A stretch of DNA of 64,000 nt from Methanochimaera problematica (lineage in GTDB: Archaea > Halobacteriota > Methanomicrobia > Methanomicrobiales > Methanomicrobiaceae), in the NCBI RefSeq assembly GCF_032878975.1, contig NZ_CP043875.1, forward strand, positions 734,370-798,369, read 5' to 3'. Position 1 is the first letter of the stretch; each line of letters opens with the position of its first letter. The notes under the pieces were generated by a model. It was not told the origin of the DNA, ran no database searches, and saw nothing but the letters and a program-made list of their open reading frames with translations. The position numbers and the translations under genes are program-made. Below are positions 6,006 to 43,596 of the stretch, piece after piece.

Positions 6006-6506
6006 ATGTGGTCTGACATACTAAAGGAATTTTCGGATTCACCCTCACAAACTATTGTTGTAAAATATCTTTTGGAAAATGGTTTTGGAGTAAATGAAAA
6101 AGGTCGCGTAATCTGCAATGACATTGAGATACCTGCAACTCATATTGGAAGAGAGACAAATACGGACAGGAGGGTTGTTGATGTCACCGCAAAAAGAATA
6201 TTGAGTCTTCCAAAGATAAGGGATATTTTTTTGAGGCTTAAAGTAACTCCTGATCTGACAGAAGTCTCTGAAACACTTGGTCTGTCAGTCATTGCGATCT
6301 ATCCGAAAGATGCAAAGCAAAAAGGGATCGTTAACGCTGCGCTTGAAGTGTTGACCAGGCATGATCTCTCTATAAGACAGATTTTTGTAACCGACTCGGA
6401 ACTCTCACAGGATCCCCGGCTTGTAATTATTGTTGAAGAGAACCCGCCTGCAGTTGTTTATAATGAACTCCGGAAACTGCCACAGGTAAAGCGTATAGTA
6501 ATATGA
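6006..6506 (+). CDS. ACT-domain-containing putative regulator of amino acid metabolism (COG2150-like)
   Basis: A 166 aa protein with an N-terminal HTH-like segment and a C-terminal ACT-like beta-alpha-beta-beta-alpha-beta region. Confidence 0.4.
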   Translation: MWSDILKEFSDSPSQTIVVKYLLENGFGVNEKGRVICNDIEIPATHIGRETNTDRRVVDVTAKRILSLPKIRDIFLRLKVTPDLTEVSETLGLSVIAIYPKDAKQKGIVNAALEVLTRHDLSIRQIFVTDSELSQDPRLVIIVEENPPAVVYNELRKLPQVKRIVI

Positions 6507-9932: not shown

Positions 9933-10640
9933 TCAACCTGAGGTGATCAGGTTTTCATCCACATTTGCAGCGGCTATTTTAGGAATCTCTCCCCATCTAA
10001 TCATATCTTTTCCTATTACCGCAAAAACTCCTATTATATCTGAATTTTCAAGAGAGTTAAACAATTCATCATTAAATGGCATTTTGATCTGATTGCAGAT
10101 TGACGTGGCCCAGGCATCAGCAAGTGACACGTTGTTTGAAAAAACTGTTACAGAATCCGCGATGCCAAAAGAAATTGAGGGCCCGACAGTTGCAGAAGAT
10201 GTACATATTCCTGTAATTTCTTTTGCAGGGGGTATTAGAAATGCCATTTTTTTACTCAAAGGTGAGTTGCCCGCATAGAGTCCTATTTTTACTGTTCTAT
10301 CTGATATTAGAGCGATGTCCCCACCGTTATCGATAACAGCAAATTTTGCGCCTTTATTTTTCATGGCACTGACACCCTCCCATGCAATTGTTCCTGCAAC
10401 TGATGCCATTGGTCCCGTCCCGGCGAGATTACCTGCATTAGTCATTTTTCTGATGATTTCAGAATCGGAATCCGTTTCATAGGGTTCAAGAGATGATCCA
10501 AAAATAGGATCTTTTAGAATTGTTCTTTCAATCTCCTGCCTTGCGTTAATCATTGCATTTTTGGCAGTTTCTATATGCTCTTTTTTATCAGCTAAAATAG
10601 TGGTGATTGTGGTTTTGTATTTGAAATATTCTCTGATCAT
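9933..10640 (-). CDS. ApbE-like / UPF0280-family protein
   Basis: Gly-rich motifs (GTGPMASVAGT, VIDNGGDIAL) resemble the ApbE/UPF0280 fold. Confidence 0.4.
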   Translation of the reverse strand: MIREYFKYKTTITTILADKKEHIETAKNAMINARQEIERTILKDPIFGSSLEPYETDSDSEIIRKMTNAGNLAGTGPMASVAGTIAWEGVSAMKNKGAKFAVIDNGGDIALISDRTVKIGLYAGNSPLSKKMAFLIPPAKEITGICTSSATVGPSISFGIADSVTVFSNNVSLADAWATSICNQIKMPFNDELFNSLENSDIIGVFAVIGKDMIRWGEIPKIAAANVDENLITSG

Positions 10641-10641
10641 T

Positions 10642-11037
10642 TTACTGAAGTAGTTTTAAAGCACCATGGGGGCATGCTATTGTGCATTTTCCGCAGAGTA
10701 CGCATTTTTCAGATCTCATCTGCAAAGACCAGTCCTCATTAAAATAAAACACTTCCTGGGGGCAGATACTAATGCACTCCCCACAATCGATACATTCCTT
10801 TTCATCACGGATAACAGAATCTTCAAGAACTTCTATACCTGCTCCGGATTCCTTAAGATTCATGGAGACCTTTTCAGCATCGCTGTCCGGAACGTCTATT
10901 AAGACCTCTCCTGCCATTGATTCGATGTAAGCTCTCTCAACATTAATCAAAACTCCTGTTTCAAGGACAGCCTTTGCAATTAATGGCTCTGAGCCTTTTT
11001 TCCTGGAAAACTTTACCAGCAGTTTCATTTTCTCCAC
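10642..11037 (-). CDS. NIL-domain 2x[4Fe-4S] ferredoxin (MA1822-type, homocysteine biosynthesis partner)
   Basis: An N-terminal NIL domain plus two CxxCxxCxxxCP motifs (CIDCGECISICP, CVLCGKCTIACP). It lies immediately downstream of the DUF39-CBS gene. Confidence 0.7.
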   Translation of the reverse strand: MEKMKLLVKFSRKKGSEPLIAKAVLETGVLINVERAYIESMAGEVLIDVPDSDAEKVSMNLKESGAGIEVLEDSVIRDEKECIDCGECISICPQEVFYFNEDWSLQMRSEKCVLCGKCTIACPHGALKLLQ

Positions 11038-12533
11038 CTCGCACCAAAGAGTTTGCCGAGATCTATTGCTGTTAGGAGTCCGGCAAGTTGTCCTTTTTTG
11101 TCAACAACCGGCAATGCACTTATGTTATTTCTCTCAAGTTTCATAGCTGCTATATCCACGGCCTCGGAAGGTGTAGTTGTAACCACGTTTTTGGACATGA
11201 TATCCGATACATTATAATCTGTTCCGTCTTTGACGACTGCTTTTGATATGTCATAGGTCGTAACGATACCAACGACTTTTCCTTCATTGTTCAGGACAGG
11301 CAGGTGGTTTGTTTCATCCCTGAGAAGTTTCTTTGCCGCAGTTTTAATGTCTTCATCATCTTTTATGAAATTAACATTAGTATTCATTATCTCGCGAACA
11401 GCAGGAGCTTCTCTTGATTCTTTCATCGGCTTTACTGTAATAGATATATCCTGTTTTCTTGTGGGAAGACAAAGTTCCATTTCGCCTTTTTCAATCCAGC
11501 ATTTAAGTTCTGATGCAACCTGACGGGCTTTCTTGAAGCTTGAGAGTGACGATGTTCTGACTTCCTCTCCGTTTAACTCAACCATTCCGCTTTTTAGTTC
11601 GGCATAGGTTATTTCCCGTACTGTAGGACGGTTTCTGCTTGGAACACCATAATCAACAACAGGTGTAATAATGTCCTCATCTCTTACAGATGTATTTCTG
11701 ACAACATCCAGATTTGTAACCGGAATTGGAACTCCTATTCCAAGATACATCGAAACCCCGTAACCGGTAAATGTCGCAGCCCGCAGGAAGTCGGGGGACA
11801 TCTCCTTTAAGTCTCCTGTTGTCATAAGTGTTGCAAAAAGATTTGCCGGTGATGACTGTGTTCCCTGACCTATCACCATTCCTTTTGCACCGCAAAGGAA
11901 TATCGGAACTCCGCTTCCGATCATCTGCATTTTGGGATCATTGATTAAAGGTGACAGGCATCCTGCGCCTGAATAGCTTAAGTTTCCAAATCCGGGCAAT
12001 AGCGTTCCCATGTATGTGTGCAAAACATTTTCAGTTGAATTGGTTGCGGCAGCATATCTCTGATAGGCGTTTCTGGGGTTGCACATTGTTGCCTGATTCA
12101 TATCTTCGAGAAGAAGTTCTGTTGTTATTGTTTTTCTTGGATAGCAGTCTGTTCCTTTTGCTGAAGCCCTGAGTTCAACGGATTTTCCGGAGATCAGATC
12201 TTCTATTACATGTGCGCCCCCGTATTTATTGCCTAATATTTCAGATTCCTGTGTTGCTCCAAGATACGCATCCACTGCTGCAATACCTGAATAGACTTCG
12301 ACATCATTTAACCAGGCCCGTTCCATTCTTATTGGAGGATCTGCATGACCAAAATTAAAAAATGCGCCTGATGAACACATAGCGCCAAAAGTTCCGGTAG
12401 TTACAACATCCACTTCTTTAAGCGCTCCTTCTTCACCAAGCTCTGCAACGATGTCAGGCATATCTTCTGCCGTAACAACTCTTGCATTGCCATTGCGTAT
12501 TTTGAGATTAATCTCTTCAATGGACTTTTCCAT
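11025..12533 (-). CDS. DUF39 (COG1900) protein with tandem CBS domains; sulfide-dependent homocysteine biosynthesis (MA1821-type)
   Basis: The conserved DUF39 N-terminal domain followed by two C-terminal CBS modules. It forms an operon with the NIL-ferredoxin. Confidence 0.7.
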   Translation of the reverse strand: MEKSIEEINLKIRNGNARVVTAEDMPDIVAELGEEGALKEVDVVTTGTFGAMCSSGAFFNFGHADPPIRMERAWLNDVEVYSGIAAVDAYLGATQESEILGNKYGGAHVIEDLISGKSVELRASAKGTDCYPRKTITTELLLEDMNQATMCNPRNAYQRYAAATNSTENVLHTYMGTLLPGFGNLSYSGAGCLSPLINDPKMQMIGSGVPIFLCGAKGMVIGQGTQSSPANLFATLMTTGDLKEMSPDFLRAATFTGYGVSMYLGIGVPIPVTNLDVVRNTSVRDEDIITPVVDYGVPSRNRPTVREITYAELKSGMVELNGEEVRTSSLSSFKKARQVASELKCWIEKGEMELCLPTRKQDISITVKPMKESREAPAVREIMNTNVNFIKDDEDIKTAAKKLLRDETNHLPVLNNEGKVVGIVTTYDISKAVVKDGTDYNVSDIMSKNVVTTTPSEAVDIAAMKLERNNISALPVVDKKGQLAGLLTAIDLGKLFGARWRK

Positions 12534-31391: not shown

Positions 31392-32609
31392 ATGGGATTT
31401 TTTAAGAAAAGACCGGATTATCATGGCGGTGATGACATTGCTGGTGCTGATTCAAGAAAAGGATTTTACTGGGTCGAAGAGAACAAAGGAGATAACCTGA
31501 TCTGGAGACTTCCTAGAAATGTCCGGTGGAATGACAATGTAATGGTCAGGGAAGATGAATATGGTATTTTTTTCCGTGACGGAAAAGCAATGCAGGTATT
31601 TGATCGTCCTGACAGGTATGCACTTACATCTCAGAACATCACAGGTCTTCAGACCCTTAGCAAATCCGTTGTTGGTGTTGCACAGATTGGTGAGTTTTAC
31701 TGGGCTCAGAAGCGTGAATTCCGTTCAAATTTTGGAACATCAGAGCCACTGAGTTTTCGTGATACTGATTTTGGTGTTGTAAGACTTCGTGTGTTTGGTC
31801 AGTATGCCTACAAAGTTGAAGACCCGATGCTTTTAATCACACAATTTGTGGGAACAAAAGGTATCACAAAGTCTGATGAGATAATTGACTGGCTTAAAGA
31901 CCAGATTGTAATGATCTTAAATGACACTCTTGGGGAGCTTAAATCAAAGCAGAGCATGGGTGTTCTGGATATGCCCGCATATCTTCAGGAGATTGAACAG
32001 ATCTGCATCACAAAGCTTACTGGTGAAACTGAAAGATATGGCCTTAAAGTAACCAAATTTTCAGGTCTTAACATAAATCTGCCGGAAGAGGTTCAGCAGG
32101 CAGTTGACAAGAGAGGCGCAATGTCAGCACTTGGTGTCAATTATATGCAGTATCAGACTGGAAAAGCAATTGAAAATATTGGAGAAGGTGCTGCACAGGG
32201 TCCTGGAGAAGGTGCCGGTTTTGCAACAATGGGTGCAGGAATGGGCGCCGGTTTCTCAATGGCAAATGTAATGGGTCAGTCTATGGGTGGCGGTATGGGA
32301 GGCGTGCCATCTGCATTTGGAGCACAAAATAATCAGCAGCCACAGCAGCCGGTTCAATCTCAGGGCACTCCTTGTATAAAATGCGGACACCAGCTTACCC
32401 CCGGAGCAAAGTTTTGCCCTAATTGTGGTGCATCACAGGCTCCTGCAACAGTGAAATGTCCAAAATGCAACGGTGATGTTTTAGAAGGTGCTAAATTCTG
32501 TTCTAATTGTGGAAACCCGATGGTTGCAAATAAATGCAGCAATTGTGGTGAAGATTTAGATCCCGGAACCAAATTCTGCTCAGGCTGTGGAAATCCGGTT
32601 GAAAAATAA
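31392..32609 (+). CDS. SPFH/Band-7 family protein with C-terminal triple zinc ribbon (COG4260, B. subtilis YdjI-like)
   Basis: The N-terminal ~270 aa is SPFH-like. It is followed by a Gly/Ala/Met-rich low-complexity linker and then three CxxC-x10-CxxC ribbons (CIKCGH...CPNCG; CPKCNG...CSNCG; CSNCGE...CSGCG). Confidence 0.7.
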   Translation: MGFFKKRPDYHGGDDIAGADSRKGFYWVEENKGDNLIWRLPRNVRWNDNVMVREDEYGIFFRDGKAMQVFDRPDRYALTSQNITGLQTLSKSVVGVAQIGEFYWAQKREFRSNFGTSEPLSFRDTDFGVVRLRVFGQYAYKVEDPMLLITQFVGTKGITKSDEIIDWLKDQIVMILNDTLGELKSKQSMGVLDMPAYLQEIEQICITKLTGETERYGLKVTKFSGLNINLPEEVQQAVDKRGAMSALGVNYMQYQTGKAIENIGEGAAQGPGEGAGFATMGAGMGAGFSMANVMGQSMGGGMGGVPSAFGAQNNQQPQQPVQSQGTPCIKCGHQLTPGAKFCPNCGASQAPATVKCPKCNGDVLEGAKFCSNCGNPMVANKCSNCGEDLDPGTKFCSGCGNPVEK

Positions 32610-32665
32610 TAAATTACATTTTAATTTTTTTAAGAAAAATAAAATAAAAATTTAAGGCCTTTTAA

Positions 32666-32857
32666 TTAGTCATCATCAGAGTCTGAATCTCCGTAATCAT
32701 CAGACTCTGTTATTTCATGATAGCTTTCTTCTACTGAATCATCATAATCATTCAAAATTTCAGGATTTTCATTTTCATAGCGGTTTTCATTATAATTTCT
32801 TGAACTACCCTGTCCAACAGAAATTTTAATACTCTTGAGAATATCCATAAGTCCCAT
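32666..32857 (-). CDS. Hypothetical small acidic protein
   Basis: A 63 aa ORF with an extreme D/E/S/Y-rich tail. It could be non-coding. Confidence 0.25.
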   Translation of the reverse strand: MGLMDILKSIKISVGQGSSRNYNENRYENENPEILNDYDDSVEESYHEITESDDYGDSDSDDD

Positions 32858-32987
32858 AATATATTGGTTATATATGAATAATATTTAATATTTGTGAAAA
32901 ATATTTGTCAAATGTTTTTATTACTTTGAAAGATTAACCAATATCTAAGAATATTTATGAATACTGATTTTACCGGAGTTATATGAA

Positions 32988-33569
32988 ATGAATGATGATG
33001 ATTCTAAAACAGTAAAGTGGACTCGGAAAATTCCACTGACGACAAACACATATGTCCTGAAACAGCTTTTTATTGTGCTTATCATTGCAATGGTTCCTTT
33101 GTTTTTGCTTTTGGTAATTCTGGATCCTGATATGTTATTTGAAATAATTCAGATTGTAGGACTTGTATTTGGAATAATGGTTGTTTTAGCAGTCATTTCT
33201 TTGATTTTGTTGCAGGTTACAACCCGTGGGGGAATTGAAGCAACTTTTACTCTGAATGGAAAAAGTATGCTATATGAGGCAGGGAAAAATTCAAAGTCTC
33301 TCAACAGGTTTACAGCAGCGGGTGCTATCCTTGCCGGTTCTCCTTCTGCACTTGGAGGGAGTCTGATCAATATTTCAAGAGAAACGGAGTCTATGAAATG
33401 GAGAGAGGTACATAAGGTTACTGCTTATGATTCCCAAAAGACAATTGTGGCGGGCCGTAAAAATATGATTAGTCCGATGGGACTTTTCTGTACTGATGAA
33501 AATTATGAAGAAGTGATTAATTTCGTAGAAACTCATATTCCATCAAATGTAATTCTAATTAGGAAATAA
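32988..33569 (+). CDS. Hypothetical membrane protein
   Basis: Two N-terminal TM helices plus a soluble C-terminal domain. Confidence 0.45.
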   Translation: MNDDDSKTVKWTRKIPLTTNTYVLKQLFIVLIIAMVPLFLLLVILDPDMLFEIIQIVGLVFGIMVVLAVISLILLQVTTRGGIEATFTLNGKSMLYEAGKNSKSLNRFTAAGAILAGSPSALGGSLINISRETESMKWREVHKVTAYDSQKTIVAGRKNMISPMGLFCTDENYEEVINFVETHIPSNVILIRK

Positions 33570-36835: not shown

Positions 36836-36977
36836 TAAAATATAATTTTTAAATATTATTTGGATACAATTACAAATAATTAATAAATAGTGCCTGACTT
36901 CAAATATTTTTTTTAAATTCGGATTTGATTGAGATTCTATATATAATGAATCAGACAAATTAGTAATGTAATATTTT

Positions 36978-37049
36978 GCCCCGATAGGGTAGTGGATATC
37001 CTAGAAGCCTCCGGAGCTTTTGACCCGGGTTCAAGTCCCGGTCGGGGCG
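36978..37049 (+). tRNA. tRNA-Arg (anticodon CCG)
   Basis: GCCCCGATAGGGTAGTGGATATCCTAGAAGCCTCCGGAGCTTTTGACCCGGGTTCAAGTCCCGGTCGGGGCG. The anticodon loop is CTCCGGA and the T-arm is CCGGGTTCAAGTCCCGG. Confidence 0.8.
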
Positions 37050-37449
37050 TGTTTATCCTAATTACGTAATCCCTTTTTTGATTCTAATGATTTTAAGGAG
37101 ATATTTGTTTACTATAAGAATATATTATTTATGATATTACGATTGTAAATTGTTGTATTTTTAACTGACACCTATATCTAATTTTATTGAGCCCACCAAT
37201 AGCTCCAATACGCCATTTTAATAGTCTTTTTTTGATTTTAAGAAAGGTTCAGATTTTTTGAGATATTCTGCTGAAAACTGAAAACAAATTAAAAACAAAT
37301 ACCAATATTATAGATGTATATGGACTATCTCCTCAAAGTGTTTTTGAATTGATAAAAGAAAATTGGTTATGTTCTTTAATATCTTCCATAATATCAATTG
37401 TAGCTGTAATTTTTATAAGTGATGTATTAACAAAATTTATAGGACCATT

Positions 37450-38406
37450 TTAACTGGCTTTTGTATATGCTTTACAGTAGTTCTTCATTGGACATTCGTC
37501 ATATAATTTTGTACAAATCCCAGGTTGGTCATTTTTAATGTCATTAATTGTAATTAATTTTGTTCCTATTTGATATGTAATAGAATTTTGAAAACAAATA
37601 TCTACATTTTGCAAATCAAAATTTATTAATTTTAATCCGATTTTTCCAAATTCGAATAAAAATTTATTGAACTCAGAAAAAATTATATCAATATGATTAT
37701 CAATATTATCAATTTCTATTTTTACACGACCACTGACAGTATCCTTTTCAAATTTTATGTGATCTTTAATATTATCTACATTTTTATTGGATGGAACTCC
37801 TTTCCGTTTGTTATATATTTGATTTAGATAACCTGGTTTCCCATCTTTTGAAAAAAATAAAAAACCAAATAATGAATGTGTCGCTTCTGTTCTTATCCAA
37901 TGAACTTCATCGTACCAATCTGTTATTTTCATGAGATGACAAAAGTCATCATCTATCATAATTTTTTCAGATAAGATTTCTGATCTCAATTTAGAAAATT
38001 TGGAAGTTAAATTCATTTTAGGATAAATTAATTTAATTATCATTGCGAGACTTTCACAAAAACTGTAGATACAATTCATGAAGGTTTCATATTTCAAAGT
38101 AAGTGCAATTAGATATTGAGTGGAACGAATTTTAATATCATCGCAATACTCCTTCCAGTAAATATCGATTAAATTTTTTAATTCTTCAAATGCAATTCTA
38201 ATCGCATTATATTTATCTTGAATTGTTTGTGACCAGTTAGTAGCATCTTTGATATGTGAGAATTGAATGGGGAAGTATCTTAAAAACAGCTCTAAATCTG
38301 TGTATTTTTCAGTTCTAATTGGAAAATTATTTACAATAAATTTTCCCTTGCAAAAAAAACCATTTCGTTCTTTATCATAAATCATATTTATTCCTTTAAG
38401 AATCAT
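37450..38406 (-). CDS. Hypothetical protein in an AT-rich islet, with a single Rx4H (RTEATH) HEPN-like motif
   Basis: A 318 aa ORF with very low GC. An RTEATH motif sits at about residues 172-177. No other recognisable domain. Confidence 0.45.
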   Translation of the reverse strand: MILKGINMIYDKERNGFFCKGKFIVNNFPIRTEKYTDLELFLRYFPIQFSHIKDATNWSQTIQDKYNAIRIAFEELKNLIDIYWKEYCDDIKIRSTQYLIALTLKYETFMNCIYSFCESLAMIIKLIYPKMNLTSKFSKLRSEILSEKIMIDDDFCHLMKITDWYDEVHWIRTEATHSLFGFLFFSKDGKPGYLNQIYNKRKGVPSNKNVDNIKDHIKFEKDTVSGRVKIEIDNIDNHIDIIFSEFNKFLFEFGKIGLKLINFDLQNVDICFQNSITYQIGTKLITINDIKNDQPGICTKLYDECPMKNYCKAYTKAS

Positions 38407-38424
38407 AATATATGGATTTTTATA

Positions 38425-38601
38425 TTCAGATTAGCAATTTAATATCCTATCAACCTCTTTCAACAAATTTCGATGTATTATTTGCTTTAAAAGGTTCTCA
38501 TTTGCGGATTTAAAGACATTTGTTGAACTTTCCTCAAATTCATCTTTAATCATTTCAACACTCAGACAATTCTCATAATTTTCATTTTTGTCCTGTTTCA
38601 T
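38425..38601 (-). CDS. Hypothetical ~58 aa acidic protein (not in the ORF track, short)
   Basis: The ATG overlaps the upstream TGA (ATGA). The frame reads MKQDKNENYENCLSVEMIKDEFEESSTNVFKSANENLLKQIIHRNLLKEVDRILNC. Confidence 0.3.
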
Positions 38602-38972
38602 AATTTTTTTAAGACCTCTTGATGAATTCCACAGACGATAGGCACCGCGACCCAGTGAAAAAGTCCCCTATGGGTTCCGTCAGGCATCTTCTTAACTCCC
38701 CTTCTTCCTTTTACAGTTTTGAATTTTTTAAATACCTGAGAGTGAAAGACAAGATAGGCAGGACTTAACATAACGTCAGTATAATTTTTATTATCAAAGG
38801 AATTTTCAAAGATTATGGATTTTCCCATATATTTGAAAATATATTGTGTTAAGTAGTCAAGTTTTTTAGATTCCACTTCTGAATTATGAGAGCCTAACTT
38901 TAAACCATGTTCCTTAGATGGAGCCCCATATTTCTTCGCCCATAAATTTTGTAATCTCTCTTCATACGGCAT
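38598..38972 (-). CDS. Hypothetical 124 aa basic protein in the AT-rich islet
   Basis: An ORF that is the first of three co-directional overlapping ORFs. Confidence 0.4.
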   Translation of the reverse strand: MPYEERLQNLWAKKYGAPSKEHGLKLGSHNSEVESKKLDYLTQYIFKYMGKSIIFENSFDNKNYTDVMLSPAYLVFHSQVFKKFKTVKGRRGVKKMPDGTHRGLFHWVAVPIVCGIHQEVLKKL

Positions 38973-39402
38973 GAAATCTTTCTTTGAAATATCATCATAT
39001 GCAGACGAGTATAAACAGATTGTATTTGAGGTTCTACAATTCAGAAATATGATACATTCCTTCTTATCTTATTCCTGATAAGAAGAGAAGACTTCCAAAA
39101 TCCATTTTTAGGATAATATTTAGTATAATCCAAGAATATCTTCTATAGAGAGACCCTTCCCAACTTTACTTCGGGCATCATTTGAATCATGACAGTTTGT
39201 AAGGGTAAACAGTGACAATGGCTAGGATTTTTTTTGACATTCATCAAGAAGATGCAATTTAGCCTGTCCTGCCTTCATGCATTCCGGTTTCAATCGGTGT
39301 ATGCAGGTCATGTTTAAAGGATAGGAGAATGTCAATTATTGTAAAATTAGATACCTAATCAATTTAAAAGGTTTTTTATATAGTTGAATACTTTTTTAAA
39401 GT

Positions 39403-41229
39403 ATGGTTAAAGTTAAACTACGTTCGGATTTATCCTATGTGGAATATATGACCGCATTTTTTATGGTGCTTTTAATCTGCATTCCTACGGCTGTTTCCGG
39501 GTGTACGATATTTGCTGTGACGCCAGACGCTTCATCAGACGGATCAGTCTACGTTGGACATACAAATGACGGTGTCGGGAAAGACTGGAGAAATGTTGAT
39601 GATGTTGTTGTAACCTACGTCCCTCCGGCAGATTATAGTCCCGGAGAAAAAAGAGCGGTATATTTTGATCCTAACAGTGGTTCAGACGCTGCAGGGAATA
39701 AGGCAGGAGATTCATCCCTTTTAGTTCTTGGATATATTGATCAGGTGCCTCATACCTATGGATACTATACAAGCTCCTATGGCATGATAAATGATCAGAA
39801 TCTGATGAGCGGTGAATGCACAGATTATGCAAAGTATGAACCAGGAGCAGAACCTGAAAAGAGAATTTTTTATTCATCCGAATTATCAAACATTGCCCTT
39901 GAGCGATGCACAAAAGCAAAAGAAGCGGTTTTGCTTGTTGGAAACCTGATTGATACATACGGATACTACGGAACCGGTGAGACACTAATCTTTGCAGACA
40001 AAGAGGAAGTATGGGTCATTGAGATGTGTGGAAATCCGGACGGCGACAACGGCGGCCTCTGGGTTGCTAAAAAAGTTCGCGACGGAGAGGTTTTCGTAGC
40101 CGGAAATGAGTTCAGAATCCGTGAAATTGTTCCTAGCAATCAGGACATGTTACATTCAGAAAACCTATTTGAGGCTGTTGAAAATGCAGGGTGGTGGTCG
40201 CCGTCTGAGGGTACCCTGGACTGGCTTAAAGCGGTAAGCTTCGGTGAGTATTCACATCCTTATTATTCACTTATGAGAGTATGGAGGCTTCAGGACAAAC
40301 TTGCCCCGTCGCTTGGGTTAAGCCCTTATGTTGAGGATTCATATACAAAGGAATATCCTTTTTCAATAAAACCTGACGCAAAGGTGGATTTTAAAACCGC
40401 AATCAATATGTTCAGGGATCACTATGAAGGAACAGAATTTGATTTAACAAAAGGCTCTGCGGCAGGTCCTTTTGGGAATCCATATCGCTATCTCGGCCCG
40501 ATGGATGCACATACTAACTTTCAAAATGAATCGTACATGGAAGTTCGTGCAGGTGCGAACGTAAGGCCAATATCGGCAATATTTTGCAGTTACAGTTATG
40601 TAGGCCAGATAAGACCAAATCTTCCAGATGAAATAAGTGGTGTTTTATGGTTCGGACCCGCCGTTGCATACGAAACTGTCTATACACCTGTATATGCGAA
40701 TTCAGAGAATATTTCCAATTCATATTCCTCTGGAAATCGACTAAAATATGATTATGATAAAGCATACTGGACTTTTGACCTTCTCACAAACTGGGCGATG
40801 CTTAAGTACAATGTAATGATAGATGATATTCAAAGCGAACAGGTGAGGCTTGAGACAGAATCATATAATATGCTAAAAGATACAGACGAAAAAGCAGTTG
40901 AATATCTAAATAGCGGGGAGACTTCGAAAGCGAAGTCATTAATCACAAATTTCACTGTAAACAGGGGAGATGAGATAGTTTCTGACTGGAAGAAACTTAC
41001 GGCAACTTTGATTGTCAAATATTCAAACGGGCTTGTTACAGACCCTGTCACAGAAGAAGTTACAGAGGATGGATGTCCTGAATGGTGGTATAATGAGACT
41101 GACTATCAGTATGGGCCGAGAGTTTATCAACTCGATGAACTTCGTGAAACTGAGGATCTGAATTATACAGGTAAAAGTGTCTGGATACTTAAGAATTCCT
41201 CCTTTGAAGAGATTTTAGATCAGATTTAG
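39403..41229 (+). CDS. Secreted C69-family cysteine dipeptidase
   Basis: A signal peptide followed by the N-terminal nucleophile GCTIFAV, typical of peptidase C69. The start may be the internal Met at 39448. Confidence 0.7.
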   Translation: MVKVKLRSDLSYVEYMTAFFMVLLICIPTAVSGCTIFAVTPDASSDGSVYVGHTNDGVGKDWRNVDDVVVTYVPPADYSPGEKRAVYFDPNSGSDAAGNKAGDSSLLVLGYIDQVPHTYGYYTSSYGMINDQNLMSGECTDYAKYEPGAEPEKRIFYSSELSNIALERCTKAKEAVLLVGNLIDTYGYYGTGETLIFADKEEVWVIEMCGNPDGDNGGLWVAKKVRDGEVFVAGNEFRIREIVPSNQDMLHSENLFEAVENAGWWSPSEGTLDWLKAVSFGEYSHPYYSLMRVWRLQDKLAPSLGLSPYVEDSYTKEYPFSIKPDAKVDFKTAINMFRDHYEGTEFDLTKGSAAGPFGNPYRYLGPMDAHTNFQNESYMEVRAGANVRPISAIFCSYSYVGQIRPNLPDEISGVLWFGPAVAYETVYTPVYANSENISNSYSSGNRLKYDYDKAYWTFDLLTNWAMLKYNVMIDDIQSEQVRLETESYNMLKDTDEKAVEYLNSGETSKAKSLITNFTVNRGDEIVSDWKKLTATLIVKYSNGLVTDPVTEEVTEDGCPEWWYNETDYQYGPRVYQLDELRETEDLNYTGKSVWILKNSSFEEILDQI

Positions 41230-41436
41230 CTTATAACCACACAGTTTATTTGCAGATTCCAAAATTAAACTCTATTTTTTCATATTCATAAACTGGTTGA
41301 AAATTATTTTCCATAATATCAATAAATCCAAAATTTTTTGGAGTAACAATTATTTTATCTGAATAAGTTATATTTCAGTTCTGTGATATCCTGATTAAAT
41401 ATATTGTGGAAGTCATGATTTTGAGGTATTCTGGTA

Positions 41437-42285
41437 ATGAACGATTATATCCAAAAGGGAATTTCCCTTTTAGAACAATTAATTGATTATGCATTAATAT
41501 TGCCGCAAAAAGCATTATCCGGAGATCTTTTTGCGATAATGATCTGTCTTATTTCAGTCTATATTCTTGCGGTTTCTATAAAAAAATTTACAAAATACAT
41601 AATTTTGGGTTTGAAAAAATTAATTGTTTTAATAATTATCACAATAGCACTTTTCATTTTTGTTCAGGATTTTCTCTTTAGGATTTTAACTGACGGTTTT
41701 ACAGTTGATACACTTATTTTTGGATTTGCAGGATTTGTCTGTGGAATTGTTGGACTGATTATTGCAATTTCAACTGTTGTCAGAGCAGTAAAAAAATACA
41801 GGGAACATAAAGACAAGATCGAAAAACATCCGGTTTTATCTGATGAAAAAATATTACAGGTAAAAGAATATTCTGAAACAGAGCAGTATGTCCAAATTCC
41901 TTATATGCCTGATAAATTATCGCGATTTGCAAAGGATAATTCAATAGGAATGGTTCTAATATATCTTATAATTGCAGAATTTGGAATATTTTCATCGAAA
42001 ACCATCCCTGCAGTAAATGCACTGACCGGTCTTTCATTTTTTTTAATATTTATCATATTTGCAGTAATTTTCATAAAATTAACATATGTAAACTATTTTA
42101 CCGGGCTCAAGCATCTTTTGTTTGCATTAATATTGGGATTTATCCTTTCAATTCTTTTGGGATATTTCTGGGGAGGAATACCTCTAAAAATATTGTTGTC
42201 AATACAATACTTTGCAACAGATGCCCTCGTGGCACTTATAACAGGGCTATCATTAAGCCTTTTTATGTCAAGCAAAGGAAAATAA
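41437..42285 (+). CDS. Hypothetical polytopic membrane protein
   Basis: Multiple TM helices. Confidence 0.45.
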   Translation: MNDYIQKGISLLEQLIDYALILPQKALSGDLFAIMICLISVYILAVSIKKFTKYIILGLKKLIVLIIITIALFIFVQDFLFRILTDGFTVDTLIFGFAGFVCGIVGLIIAISTVVRAVKKYREHKDKIEKHPVLSDEKILQVKEYSETEQYVQIPYMPDKLSRFAKDNSIGMVLIYLIIAEFGIFSSKTIPAVNALTGLSFFLIFIIFAVIFIKLTYVNYFTGLKHLLFALILGFILSILLGYFWGGIPLKILLSIQYFATDALVALITGLSLSLFMSSKGK

Positions 42286-42288
42286 AAA

Positions 42289-43596
42289 TTAGTATGGGTA
42301 GAAAATAAAAAACAGAGTACAAAGGGCAAATAAAAACCAGGATGCCGGATGAACTTCTTTCCATTCTCCTTTAATAACTTTAAACAAAGGATATAATACA
42401 AAACCACTGCAAAGCCCGACGCCGATATTGTAGGTAAAGCTCATCAAAATTATAACAACAAATGCAGGGATTATTTCAGTCTGGTCTTTAAAATTCATCA
42501 ATTTTATTGGCTGCATCATAAAGATTCCAACCATTATCATTGCAGGTCCTGTTGCAGATGCAGGTATTGCTGCAAAAAGTGGTGAAAAGAAAAGAGCCAG
42601 AGAAAAGAGTATTGAAACAACCACTGCTGTCAGGCCGGTCCTTCCTCCTGCCAGAATTCCTGTTGCGGATTCCATAAATGCTCCGCTTGTAGTGGTTCCG
42701 ATAAGTGGTGCAAAAATATTGGTGATCCCGTCAACTAAAAAAGGTTTTTCTATTTCCGGCAGGTTTCCTTTTTCATCTAAAAATCCTGCCTGGGCTGATA
42801 CTCCGATTAAACCGGCCATTGTATCCAGAAATGACATGGTGAAAATTGTGAGTACTACTGCAACAAATCCCCAGGTGAATACTCCTGCAATATCCAGTTG
42901 TAAAAGAATAGGAGTTATATCGGGCGGCATACTGATAATTGCTTCAGGAGGGGTTATTATTCCTGTTAAAAATCCCGCCAGGGATGTAAAAATAATTCCA
43001 AATAATATTGCACCGTTTATTTTTTTAATTATCAGTCCTGAAATGAAAATAAAACCTGCAATTGCGAGAAGAATTTCCGGACTATTTAATTCTCCCACAT
43101 GAACGGGGGCGGTTTCTGTCCCGAGTATTACAATTTTTGAGTTAACAAGGCCCACAAATGTAATAAATAACCCGATTCCTACAGCAAAACTGTACTTTAG
43201 ATTTTGTGGAATTGCTTCGCACATTAATTTTCTGCCGCCTGCTAGAGTCAGGATTGTTAGCAGTATTCCGCTAATAAAAACTGCTCCCAGGGCCGTCTGC
43301 CATGAATAACCCAGAACTCCGCAGACAGTATATGCGATAAATGCATTTTCACCCATATAAGGTGCAACAGCAAAGGGGCGGTTTGCATAAAAACCCATTA
43401 TAAGTGTTCCAAATACTGCTGTAATTATCGTAGCAACTACTGAAGCACCAAAGGGAATTCCTGCTGCAACAAGTATGGCAGGGTTGACAACTATGATATA
43501 GGCCATTGTCATGAAAGTGACAATCCCGGCATTTACTTCCTTTTTTATGTTCGTGTCATTTTCTTTAAGTTTGAAAATTTTCTCAATGTATGTCAA
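42289..43596 (-). CDS. NCS2/AzgA-family purine (adenine/guanine/hypoxanthine) permease
   Basis: It has the AzgA-like N-terminus (IEKIFKLKE...NAGIVTFMTMAYII), 12+ TM helices, and a likely TTG start preceded by AGGAG. The ORF track extends to 43671. Confidence 0.7.
   Translation of the reverse strand: MTYIEKIFKLKENDTNIKKEVNAGIVTFMTMAYIIVVNPAILVAAGIPFGASVVATIITAVFGTLIMGFYANRPFAVAPYMGENAFIAYTVCGVLGYSWQTALGAVFISGILLTILTLAGGRKLMCEAIPQNLKYSFAVGIGLFITFVGLVNSKIVILGTETAPVHVGELNSPEILLAIAGFIFISGLIIKKINGAILFGIIFTSLAGFLTGIITPPEAIISMPPDITPILLQLDIAGVFTWGFVAVVLTIFTMSFLDTMAGLIGVSAQAGFLDEKGNLPEIEKPFLVDGITNIFAPLIGTTTSGAFMESATGILAGGRTGLTAVVVSILFSLALFFSPLFAAIPASATGPAMIMVGIFMMQPIKLMNFKDQTEIIPAFVVIILMSFTYNIGVGLCSGFVLYPLFKVIKGEWKEVHPASWFLFALCTLFFIFYPY

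Follow-up and report, generated by a model that had tools for sequence, protein, structure and literature searches.

The DNA that follows the tRNA-Arg(CCG) gene of the archaeon Methanochimaera problematica (assembly GCF_032878975.1, contig NZ_CP043875.1) is AT-rich and carries three closely spaced open reading frames (ORFs) on the minus strand. We asked whether it represents a horizontally acquired three-gene defence or toxin-antitoxin cassette, as the original prediction for this locus had it, or the residue of a mobile element of another kind. The analysis covered 64,000 nucleotides (positions 734,370 to 798,369 of the forward strand of the contig), hereafter called the window, to which all coordinates refer unless another contig is named. 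Our results indicate that positions 37051-39055 are probably the now immobile residue of a small integrative plasmid of the rolling-circle type, which had a size of about 5 kb when complete, and that one intact cargo gene for a HEPN-like protein survives in it.

The three ORFs were recovered mechanically at 37450-38406 (318 amino acids, aa), 38431-38601 (56 aa) and 38598-38972 (124 aa), and searches of the three proteins against Pfam, PADLOC, PHROGs and NCBIfam gave zero matches, the PADLOC search by which the predicted cassette was to be checked included. Comparison with homologues showed that the two small ORFs belong to a single gene, rep, which codes for a rolling-circle replication protein (Rep). 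Homologues of the 124-aa ORF were 70-81% identical to it, longer, and continued into sequence matching the 56-aa ORF. In tblastn searches, residues 5-111 of one such homologue (P0004) fell on 38987-38667 and residues 112-175 on 38664-38470 in another frame, while an intact Rep of 343 aa from contig L008 aligned in three pieces, with residues 128-152 on 39055-38978, 150-256 on 38987-38667 and 257-325 on 38664-38458. Three overlapping ORFs are thus present as described, and the 318-aa ORF is indeed without family assignment; the two small ones are neither orphans nor separate genes but parts of one broken rep.

The nature of the protein could be read from longer copies in other contigs, which carry motif 1 (FVTMMTLTV), the HUH motif (YPHLHMMIF) and then YIFKYMGK. 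A full-length relative from contig L006 matched the Pfam family REP_ORF2-G2P (PF23343, HUH Reps of superfamily I with two tyrosines) at 41.1 bits (cut-off 27.8; E 2.3e-10), and weaker matches of the full-length Rep to DUF1424, Phage_GPA and a rolling-circle-initiation PHROG were also obtained. The Rep fragments of the window, which alone give no Pfam match, are 77% identical to the PF23343-matching proteins. The nearest named relatives were orf1 of plasmid pML of Methanohalophilus mahii (31% identity, 8e-22) and the Reps of two haloarchaeal 2.5-kb plasmids. No match to Rep was found in IMG/VR or in a collection of phage and archaeal-virus GenBank entries, and scans of genomes and metagenomes for Rep returned three loci only. 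The Rep-Arvir family (PMC13107129) was considered as an identity and ruled out, being a different, non-HUH Rep family. The rep region of the window contains the following features:

38431-39055, minus strand, rolling-circle Rep pseudogene covering codons ~128-325 of the 343-aa protein in three frames (tblastn with the L008 Rep)
39041-39043, minus strand, TGA stop at the rep Trp132 codon, which is TGG in L005 and L008
38999-39007, minus strand, degraded HUH motif, reading RLH where intact copies have HLH
38982-38986, minus strand, 1-nt deletion just past the HUH region, by which MMIF and KDFMPYEE fall in different frames
38820-38843, minus strand, Rep motif 3, YIFKYMGK (YxxKYxxK with two catalytic tyrosines), still readable
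38665-38666, minus strand, 2-nt insertion by which rep is divided between the 124-aa ORF and the 56-aa ORF (eight DNA copies aligned; frame change in tblastn)

Codons 1-127 of rep, motif 1 among them, are missing from the window, and YIFKYMGK is the only one of the motifs left intact. Since no single frame holds intact motif 1, HUH and motif 3, the window copy is a pseudogene and not a working Rep. Intact copies read MMIFTKEDFMPYEE at the site of the 1-nt deletion. At the insertion the window reads CAT-AGGGG-AC, where all other aligned copies read CAT-CGG-AC, and an independent Logan assembly from this organism has the two extra nucleotides too. The overlap of the two small ORFs at ATGA, which had been taken for head-to-tail coupling of two genes, is a by-product of the frame shift that this insertion causes. 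The sole differences of the Logan assembly (SRR21777788) are one A fewer in each of the A-runs at 38706 and 38729, either a homopolymer sequencing error in one assembly or real variation.

The complete form of the element is represented by L008, a 6.5-kb contig binned as a cyanobacterial metagenome-assembled genome (MAG). Its order is a 14-mer, a tyrosine-type integrase (400 aa; Phage_integrase, 1.3e-24), the intact Rep, a 370-aa cargo gene of no recognisable function on the other strand, an AT-rich arm and a tRNA-Arg(GCG) gene. The 14-nt repeat TACGCCCCGGCCGG is located at 1207 and 6420 of L008, the second copy overlapping the 3' end of the tRNA gene, and L008 therefore contains an integrated element of the classical form, about 5.2 kb long and with attachment (att) repeats at its ends. 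Its tRNA-Arg is of the archaeal type and 92% identical to the tRNA-Arg(CCG) of the window, and for this reason the cyanobacterial binning is probably wrong. A weak second match to the C-terminal segment of Rep (residues 258-326, 29%, E 0.002) was seen at 2608-2805 of L008, in the interval between integrase and rep.

Alignment of the nucleotide sequences of the window and L008 revealed two blocks of homology, one in rep (window 39045-38457, 79.7% DNA identity) and one comprising tRNA and arm (window 37238-37000 with L008 6234-6471, 79% identity), the latter lying inside the L008 att repeats. The DNA between these blocks is unrelated in the two loci, and the 318-aa gene consequently occupies a slot which holds a different gene in L008. 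Because positions 37051-37240 are homologous to the interior of the L008 element, they are element DNA, namely the arm beside attL. The tRNA-proximal side of the locus is made up as follows:

36977-37050, plus strand, tRNA-Arg(CCG) (ARAGORN; Rfam tRNA, 58.9 bits)
37051-37240, no strand, conserved tRNA-proximal arm of the element, 190 bp, homologous to the L008 arm
37241-37449, no strand, AT-rich spacer (GC 0.24) from the arm to the cargo stop codon, without homology to other elements

The tRNA was the sole match in an Rfam scan of the window, and by analogy with L008 its 3' end would be the integration target and the attL side of the element. No integrase-like sequence was detected anywhere in the window by tblastn. 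A second copy of the tRNA 3' end was found neither at up to 3 mismatches nor by repeat search, in agreement with the earlier inspection of the sequence, in which no such repeat had been seen. The suggestion of a decayed foreign island at the tRNA 3' end is borne out by the rep pseudogene, the arm held in common with L008 and the missing integrase and distal att repeat.

The base composition is also as had been described. The GC content is 0.24-0.32 across 37000-39400 compared with 0.41-0.43 in hypD, the C69 peptidase gene and a PAPS-reductase-like gene, and of all 2-kb segments in the window the one starting at 37101 has the lowest GC (0.275; window mean 0.365, standard deviation 0.037), so that the AT-rich patch starting at the tRNA 3' end was confirmed. 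Codon usage showed the same, GC at third codon positions being 0.20 in the 318-aa ORF and 0.33-0.36 in neighbouring genes. The flanking genes named in the original prediction were verified by profile matches to HypD (2.9e-137) and Peptidase_C69 (6.5e-49). On the side of the C69 gene the homology to other copies ends with the rep remnant:

39056-39402, no strand, stretch beyond the rep remnant, with no blastn or tblastn match to any element copy past 39055

These 347 bp extend as far as the C69 gene and are probably intergenic DNA of native origin, with the C69 peptidase promoter.

The layout of rep, cargo and a tRNA gene on the opposite strand was also found at tRNA-Thr in contigs L004 and L006. 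L004, from a Methanobacteriota MAG, carries a 5'-truncated rep, a GmrSD-like gene and a HEPN gene, followed by tRNA-Thr(CGT) on the opposite strand; its cargo (10455-12163) is a recognised defence pair, in which the GmrSD-like gene was identified as PD-T4-2_A/NsnA (PADLOC, 4e-60) and the HEPN gene codes for a HEPN_MAE_28990/RiboL-PSP protein. In L006 a nearly full rep with TAG at codon 132 is followed by a second rep 3' fragment, two unassigned genes and tRNA-Thr(CGT). No recognisable function could be given to the slot cargos of L005, L006, L007 and L008. A distant Rep (38% identity; PF23343, 9.6e-10) was present in L010, a metagenome contig of 1.09 Mb, with a tyrosine integrase (2.4e-36) about 4 kb away. 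The element family thus revealed in methanogenic archaea is small, combines an integrase with a Rep, and has between rep and arm a slot whose content differs from copy to copy, one copy holding a defence pair.

The arms have a sequence motif in common as well. In 4/4 arms, including two at tRNA-Thr, TTAC(G/T)TA(A/G) and a T-run follow about 10 nt past the tRNA; the window version is TTACGTAA and then the T-run, about 10 nt past the tRNA end (37061-37085), and that of L008 lies at 6395-6415. This palindrome-like motif may serve the integrase as a binding site, or it may be a terminator for the tRNA that the element brings along.

Five of the copies are remnants (L002, L004, L006, L007 and the window), in which the 5' part of rep is lost at codons 128, 159, 167, 201 and ~255, while the 3' end of rep and the cargo are kept in 5/5. 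As all five are cut at the 5' side only, the decay is one-sided, from the integrase end.

Some further coincidences were observed among the rep copies. The Trp132 codon is a stop in two copies, as TGA in the window and as TAG in L006 (716-718), which are independent and lie at different tRNAs; this may be chance, as the gene has about five Trp codons. In two independent copies the frame shifts to the same alternative at sites no more than about 8 codons apart, through +2 nt in the window (codon 256/257) and through -1 nt in L007 (about 1620-1640, just after an A7 run), and as a result of these nearly coincident frameshifts the 124-aa ORF of the window and protein P0006 have an out-of-frame tail in common. 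The second rep fragment of L006 (1555-1757) starts at codon ~255 as well. The region around codon 255 may be a decay hot spot, or the agreement may be a coincidence. A Rep nick site inside rep near codon 255, which would account both for the insertion in the window and for the starting point of the second L006 fragment, was considered and dropped, no extra nucleotide conservation being seen there.

The history of the locus can be proposed from these comparisons. Judged from L008, integration would have been the work of a tyrosine integrase, by recombination between the tRNA-Arg 3' end and a 12-14-nt core in the circular element; the tRNA would thereby have been restored with DNA of the element, and the distal boundary would have received a copy of the core. 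The original order, going away from the tRNA, would have been conserved arm, variable cargo slot, rep, integrase and distal repeat. A later single deletion with its junction at about 39055/39056 would have taken the integrase, attR and rep codons 1-127, and what remained of rep would then have gathered the stop codon, the 1-nt deletion, the 2-nt insertion and the damaged HUH motif. With integrase and distal repeat lost and rep broken, the element can no longer excise or replicate. The cargo would have been carried for the benefit of the plasmid as a stand-alone HEPN-type RNase against viruses or other mobile elements, and the host may have kept the gene after the plasmid decayed. Insertion at tRNA genes mediated by Rep without an integrase had also been considered, and was abandoned once L008 showed an integrase and att repeats.

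The cargo gene is the only intact gene of the remnant:

37450-38385, minus strand, cargo gene for a HEPN-like protein of 311 aa, intact, with the ORF open back to 38406 (318 aa)
37876-37893, minus strand, RTEATH, the Rx4H motif of the family (R172, H177)

Its start is likely Met8 of the ORF (38385), on which three indications agree: NCBI calls a 311-aa protein, the closest homologue begins at the corresponding position, and an AGGA is located 8 nt upstream. The reading frame comprises 326 stop-free codons, compared with a maximum of 143 in 500 shuffles, and is thus far longer than chance allows in this composition. A word-indexed search with the 318-aa protein returned only the protein itself and a family-alignment search almost nothing, while an exhaustive search of representatives of 50%-identity clusters gave 45 distant relatives, 29 of them below 1e-10.

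Conservation was determined in an alignment of 31 family members, with residues numbered as in the 318-aa ORF protein. RTEATH is present in this protein, as had been noted, and analysis of the alignment revealed R172 in every sequence and H177 in at least 90%, with a consensus of R[ST]E[AS]TH; N111, Y114, W164 and Y165 are likewise near-invariant. Near the C-terminus C271 is near-invariant and three more cysteines belong to the majority consensus. Residues 271-311 of the window protein read C-x26-C-x6-C-x5-C, and the four cysteines could bind Zn or an Fe-S cluster. Catalytic HEPN RNases are characterised by a conserved Rx4-6H whose Arg is followed by a polar residue (PMC3710099), and the cargo family shows this arrangement, the polar residue included. 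An AlphaFold2 model built with the family alignment (mean predicted local distance difference test, pLDDT, 85.8) has a helical domain at residues 37-178, which ends in the Rx4H helix and is followed by an alpha/beta domain. The top structural match of the model was a HEPN toxin, and Foldseek against PDB and BFVD gave nothing significant; the structure searches are suggestive without being decisive. A PDB sequence profile search gave nothing, hhalign of the family profile with two single HEPN proteins from the loci gave probabilities <1%, and the cargo protein had no match in plasmid and phage collections. Pfam and PADLOC searches with the 31 members returned sub-threshold noise only.

We next consider the genomic context of the cargo homologues. 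Restriction-modification (R-M) operons are linked to at least 16 HEPN clades, and HEPN genes embedded in such operons are an established pattern (PMC3710099). The gene for the homologue P0009, from Methanoregula, has in five contigs a 1-nt overlap with the end of an R-M gene of the MmeI-like type IIG kind (1019-1025 aa), in an island that also holds Polbeta-NTase/HEPN and Fic genes. P0069 begins 8 nt after HsdM-HsdS and has ParE and HepT/MNT pairs as neighbours. The contexts in L011, L018 and L021 were uninformative, save for a nearby HicB-like gene and a weak Csx1/Csm6-like match in one neighbour. The cargo gene of the window has no R-M neighbour, being adjoined by the rep pseudogene and the tRNA. 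The cargo protein is likely a HEPN-type RNase with a role in genetic conflict, a defence role being inferred from the context of the homologues. A type I-like HsdM-HsdS pair was observed at 785-4516 of L024, with a member of the cargo family directly after it; the contig, 9 kb in length, contains no HsdR, as though the HEPN-like protein stood in for the restriction subunit.

Other explanations of the locus were weighed against an integrative plasmid remnant. A compact and translationally coupled toxin-antitoxin or defence operon of three genes (124, 56 and 318 aa) would explain why the ORFs run in one direction with little space between them and an ATGA overlap, and why the large protein has an Rx4H motif. 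This cassette of the original prediction is already contradicted, for two of its genes are dead pieces of one Rep in two frames, which intact copies encode as a single 343-aa protein, no MNT-like or other antitoxin family was detected as a partner, and PADLOC gave nothing; we regard it as very improbable. That the low-GC stretch is native DNA, a fast-evolving intergenic or accessory region with incidental similarity to mobile elements, would agree with dips to GC 0.24-0.30 elsewhere in the window (32600-33000 and 41200-42300). About 600 bp at 77-80% identity to rep genes and 190 bp of homology to the arm, on unrelated contigs and at other tRNAs, contradict this already and make it exceedingly improbable. 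The remnant might also come from a provirus, for example a small pleolipovirus-like ssDNA or dsDNA virus that has an integrase as well as a rolling-circle Rep. Reps for rolling-circle replication are encoded by some archaeal viruses, and in L010 the distant Rep lies upstream of the integrase with co-directional unassigned ORFs between them that could be a virion module. On the contrary, the viral collections searched with Rep contained no relative, the named relatives are plasmids of 2-2.5 kb, and the 5.2 kb of L008 have room for int, rep and one or two cargo genes only, none of them capsid-like in Pfam. A viral origin is therefore improbable, and the plasmid remnant remains the preferred explanation.

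The function of the cargo is a separate question. It may be a helical bundle which is not an RNase, with a part in plasmid maintenance, in regulation or as a non-catalytic nucleic-acid-binding partner of a methyltransferase, its Rx4H having arisen by convergence. This is rather unlikely, because the Arg and His, at exactly the distance found in HEPN proteins, are conserved more strongly than any other polar residues of the family and the Arg is followed by a polar residue as in HEPN families (PMC3710099), the top structural match, suggestive only, is to a HEPN toxin, the family is operonically linked to two types of R-M system, and a recognised defence pair sits in the slot of a sister element.

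Several points weigh against the picture of a plasmid remnant with a HEPN cargo. Integrase, distal att repeat and the 5' end of rep are all absent from the window, and the mechanism of integration is read across from L008 rather than seen in the window itself. L008 is in turn a single short contig, MAG-binned as cyanobacterial and with its host unverified. As to the cargo protein, it has no match in Pfam, NCBIfam, PADLOC or PHROGs, and no profile backs the HEPN assignment; the only hits, HEPN_Cthe2314 (0.0041) and HEPN_LA2681 (0.011), are below threshold and each occurs in 1/31 relatives. The HEPN likeness proposed for the 318-aa protein is therefore favoured by the conservation of Rx4H and, suggestively, by the modelled helical fold, and by no significant HEPN profile. 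Coupling to R-M systems was found in only 2/6 distinct genomic contexts of the cargo family.

The element was compared with known systems. Small rolling-circle plasmids of archaea, namely pML of Methanohalophilus mahii and haloarchaeal plasmids like pGRB1 and pHGN1 (REP_ORF2-G2P, DUF1424), have the same motif 1, HUH and YxxKYxxK in Rep, but they are free replicons of 2-2.5 kb without an integrase, whereas the present family combines Rep, tyrosine integrase and a cargo slot and is integrated at tRNA genes, with a pseudogene as the window copy. Integrative plasmids and genomic islets in archaea and bacteria that target tRNA genes by a tyrosine recombinase, for instance the pT26-2 family (PMC6972569), agree with it in insertion at the tRNA 3' end, in the direct repeat of the complete element, in low GC and in decay to integrase-less remnants. 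It differs from them in being much smaller (~5 kb), in having a rolling-circle Rep, in the location of the integrase at the end far from the tRNA, and in that the window retains neither att repeat nor integrase. A variable slot between conserved modules is also known from the defence-gene hotspots of prophages and satellites (PD-T4-2 and others), and the L004 slot with PD-T4-2_A/NsnA and HEPN is of this kind; here the carrier is an archaeal mini-plasmid, and most slot cargos are without recognisable function.

The cargo protein was likewise compared with established HEPN proteins. R-M-linked HEPN RNases such as PrrC/RloC and ApeA-like proteins (PMC3710099) resemble it in Rx4H with the polar residue and in the position of homologues after R-M genes, and perhaps in a helical bundle, the modelled one having a HEPN toxin as its top structural match. 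It differs from PrrC/RloC in lacking an ABC-ATPase domain (Pfam, model), and from the R-M-linked families in general in having no significant Pfam HEPN match and a C-terminal alpha/beta domain with four conserved cysteines. Unlike the HEPN-MNT (HepT-MntA) toxin-antitoxin pairs of type II/VII it has no adjacent MNT (no NTP_transf_2 or Polbeta match), the neighbouring ORFs being Rep fragments only; compared with HepT it is 2.4 times longer, has an extra domain and shows nil sequence similarity.

Both the type of element and the protein superfamily are of known kinds, and a decayed tRNA-borne islet with defence-like cargo follows a well-known principle. The specific element family and the cargo protein family appear undescribed, no paper on either having been found in the literature searched. 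Tentatively, and on balance doubtfully, it may be proposed that mini-plasmids with int and rep are undescribed shuttles of methanogens which target tRNA genes, carry defence genes and decay one-sidedly, with loss of integrase and rep 5' end in every case, thereby grounding their cargo in the chromosome of the host, and that the 311-aa protein represents a new HEPN clade, an R-M-coupled second-line RNase comparable to PrrC without the ATPase, which stands alone here. Since few mobile elements and defence genes of Methanomicrobiales are described, the element family and the HEPN-like family, with its 45 representatives, two of them R-M-coupled, are useful leads. The annotation of the locus is corrected in that two "hypothetical proteins" are pieces of a dead rep and its one intact gene codes for a candidate HEPN-type nuclease.

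Elsewhere in the window, the low-GC stretch at 41200-42300 contains, at 41437-42285, an ORF of 282 aa which has no Pfam match and resembles a multi-pass membrane protein.

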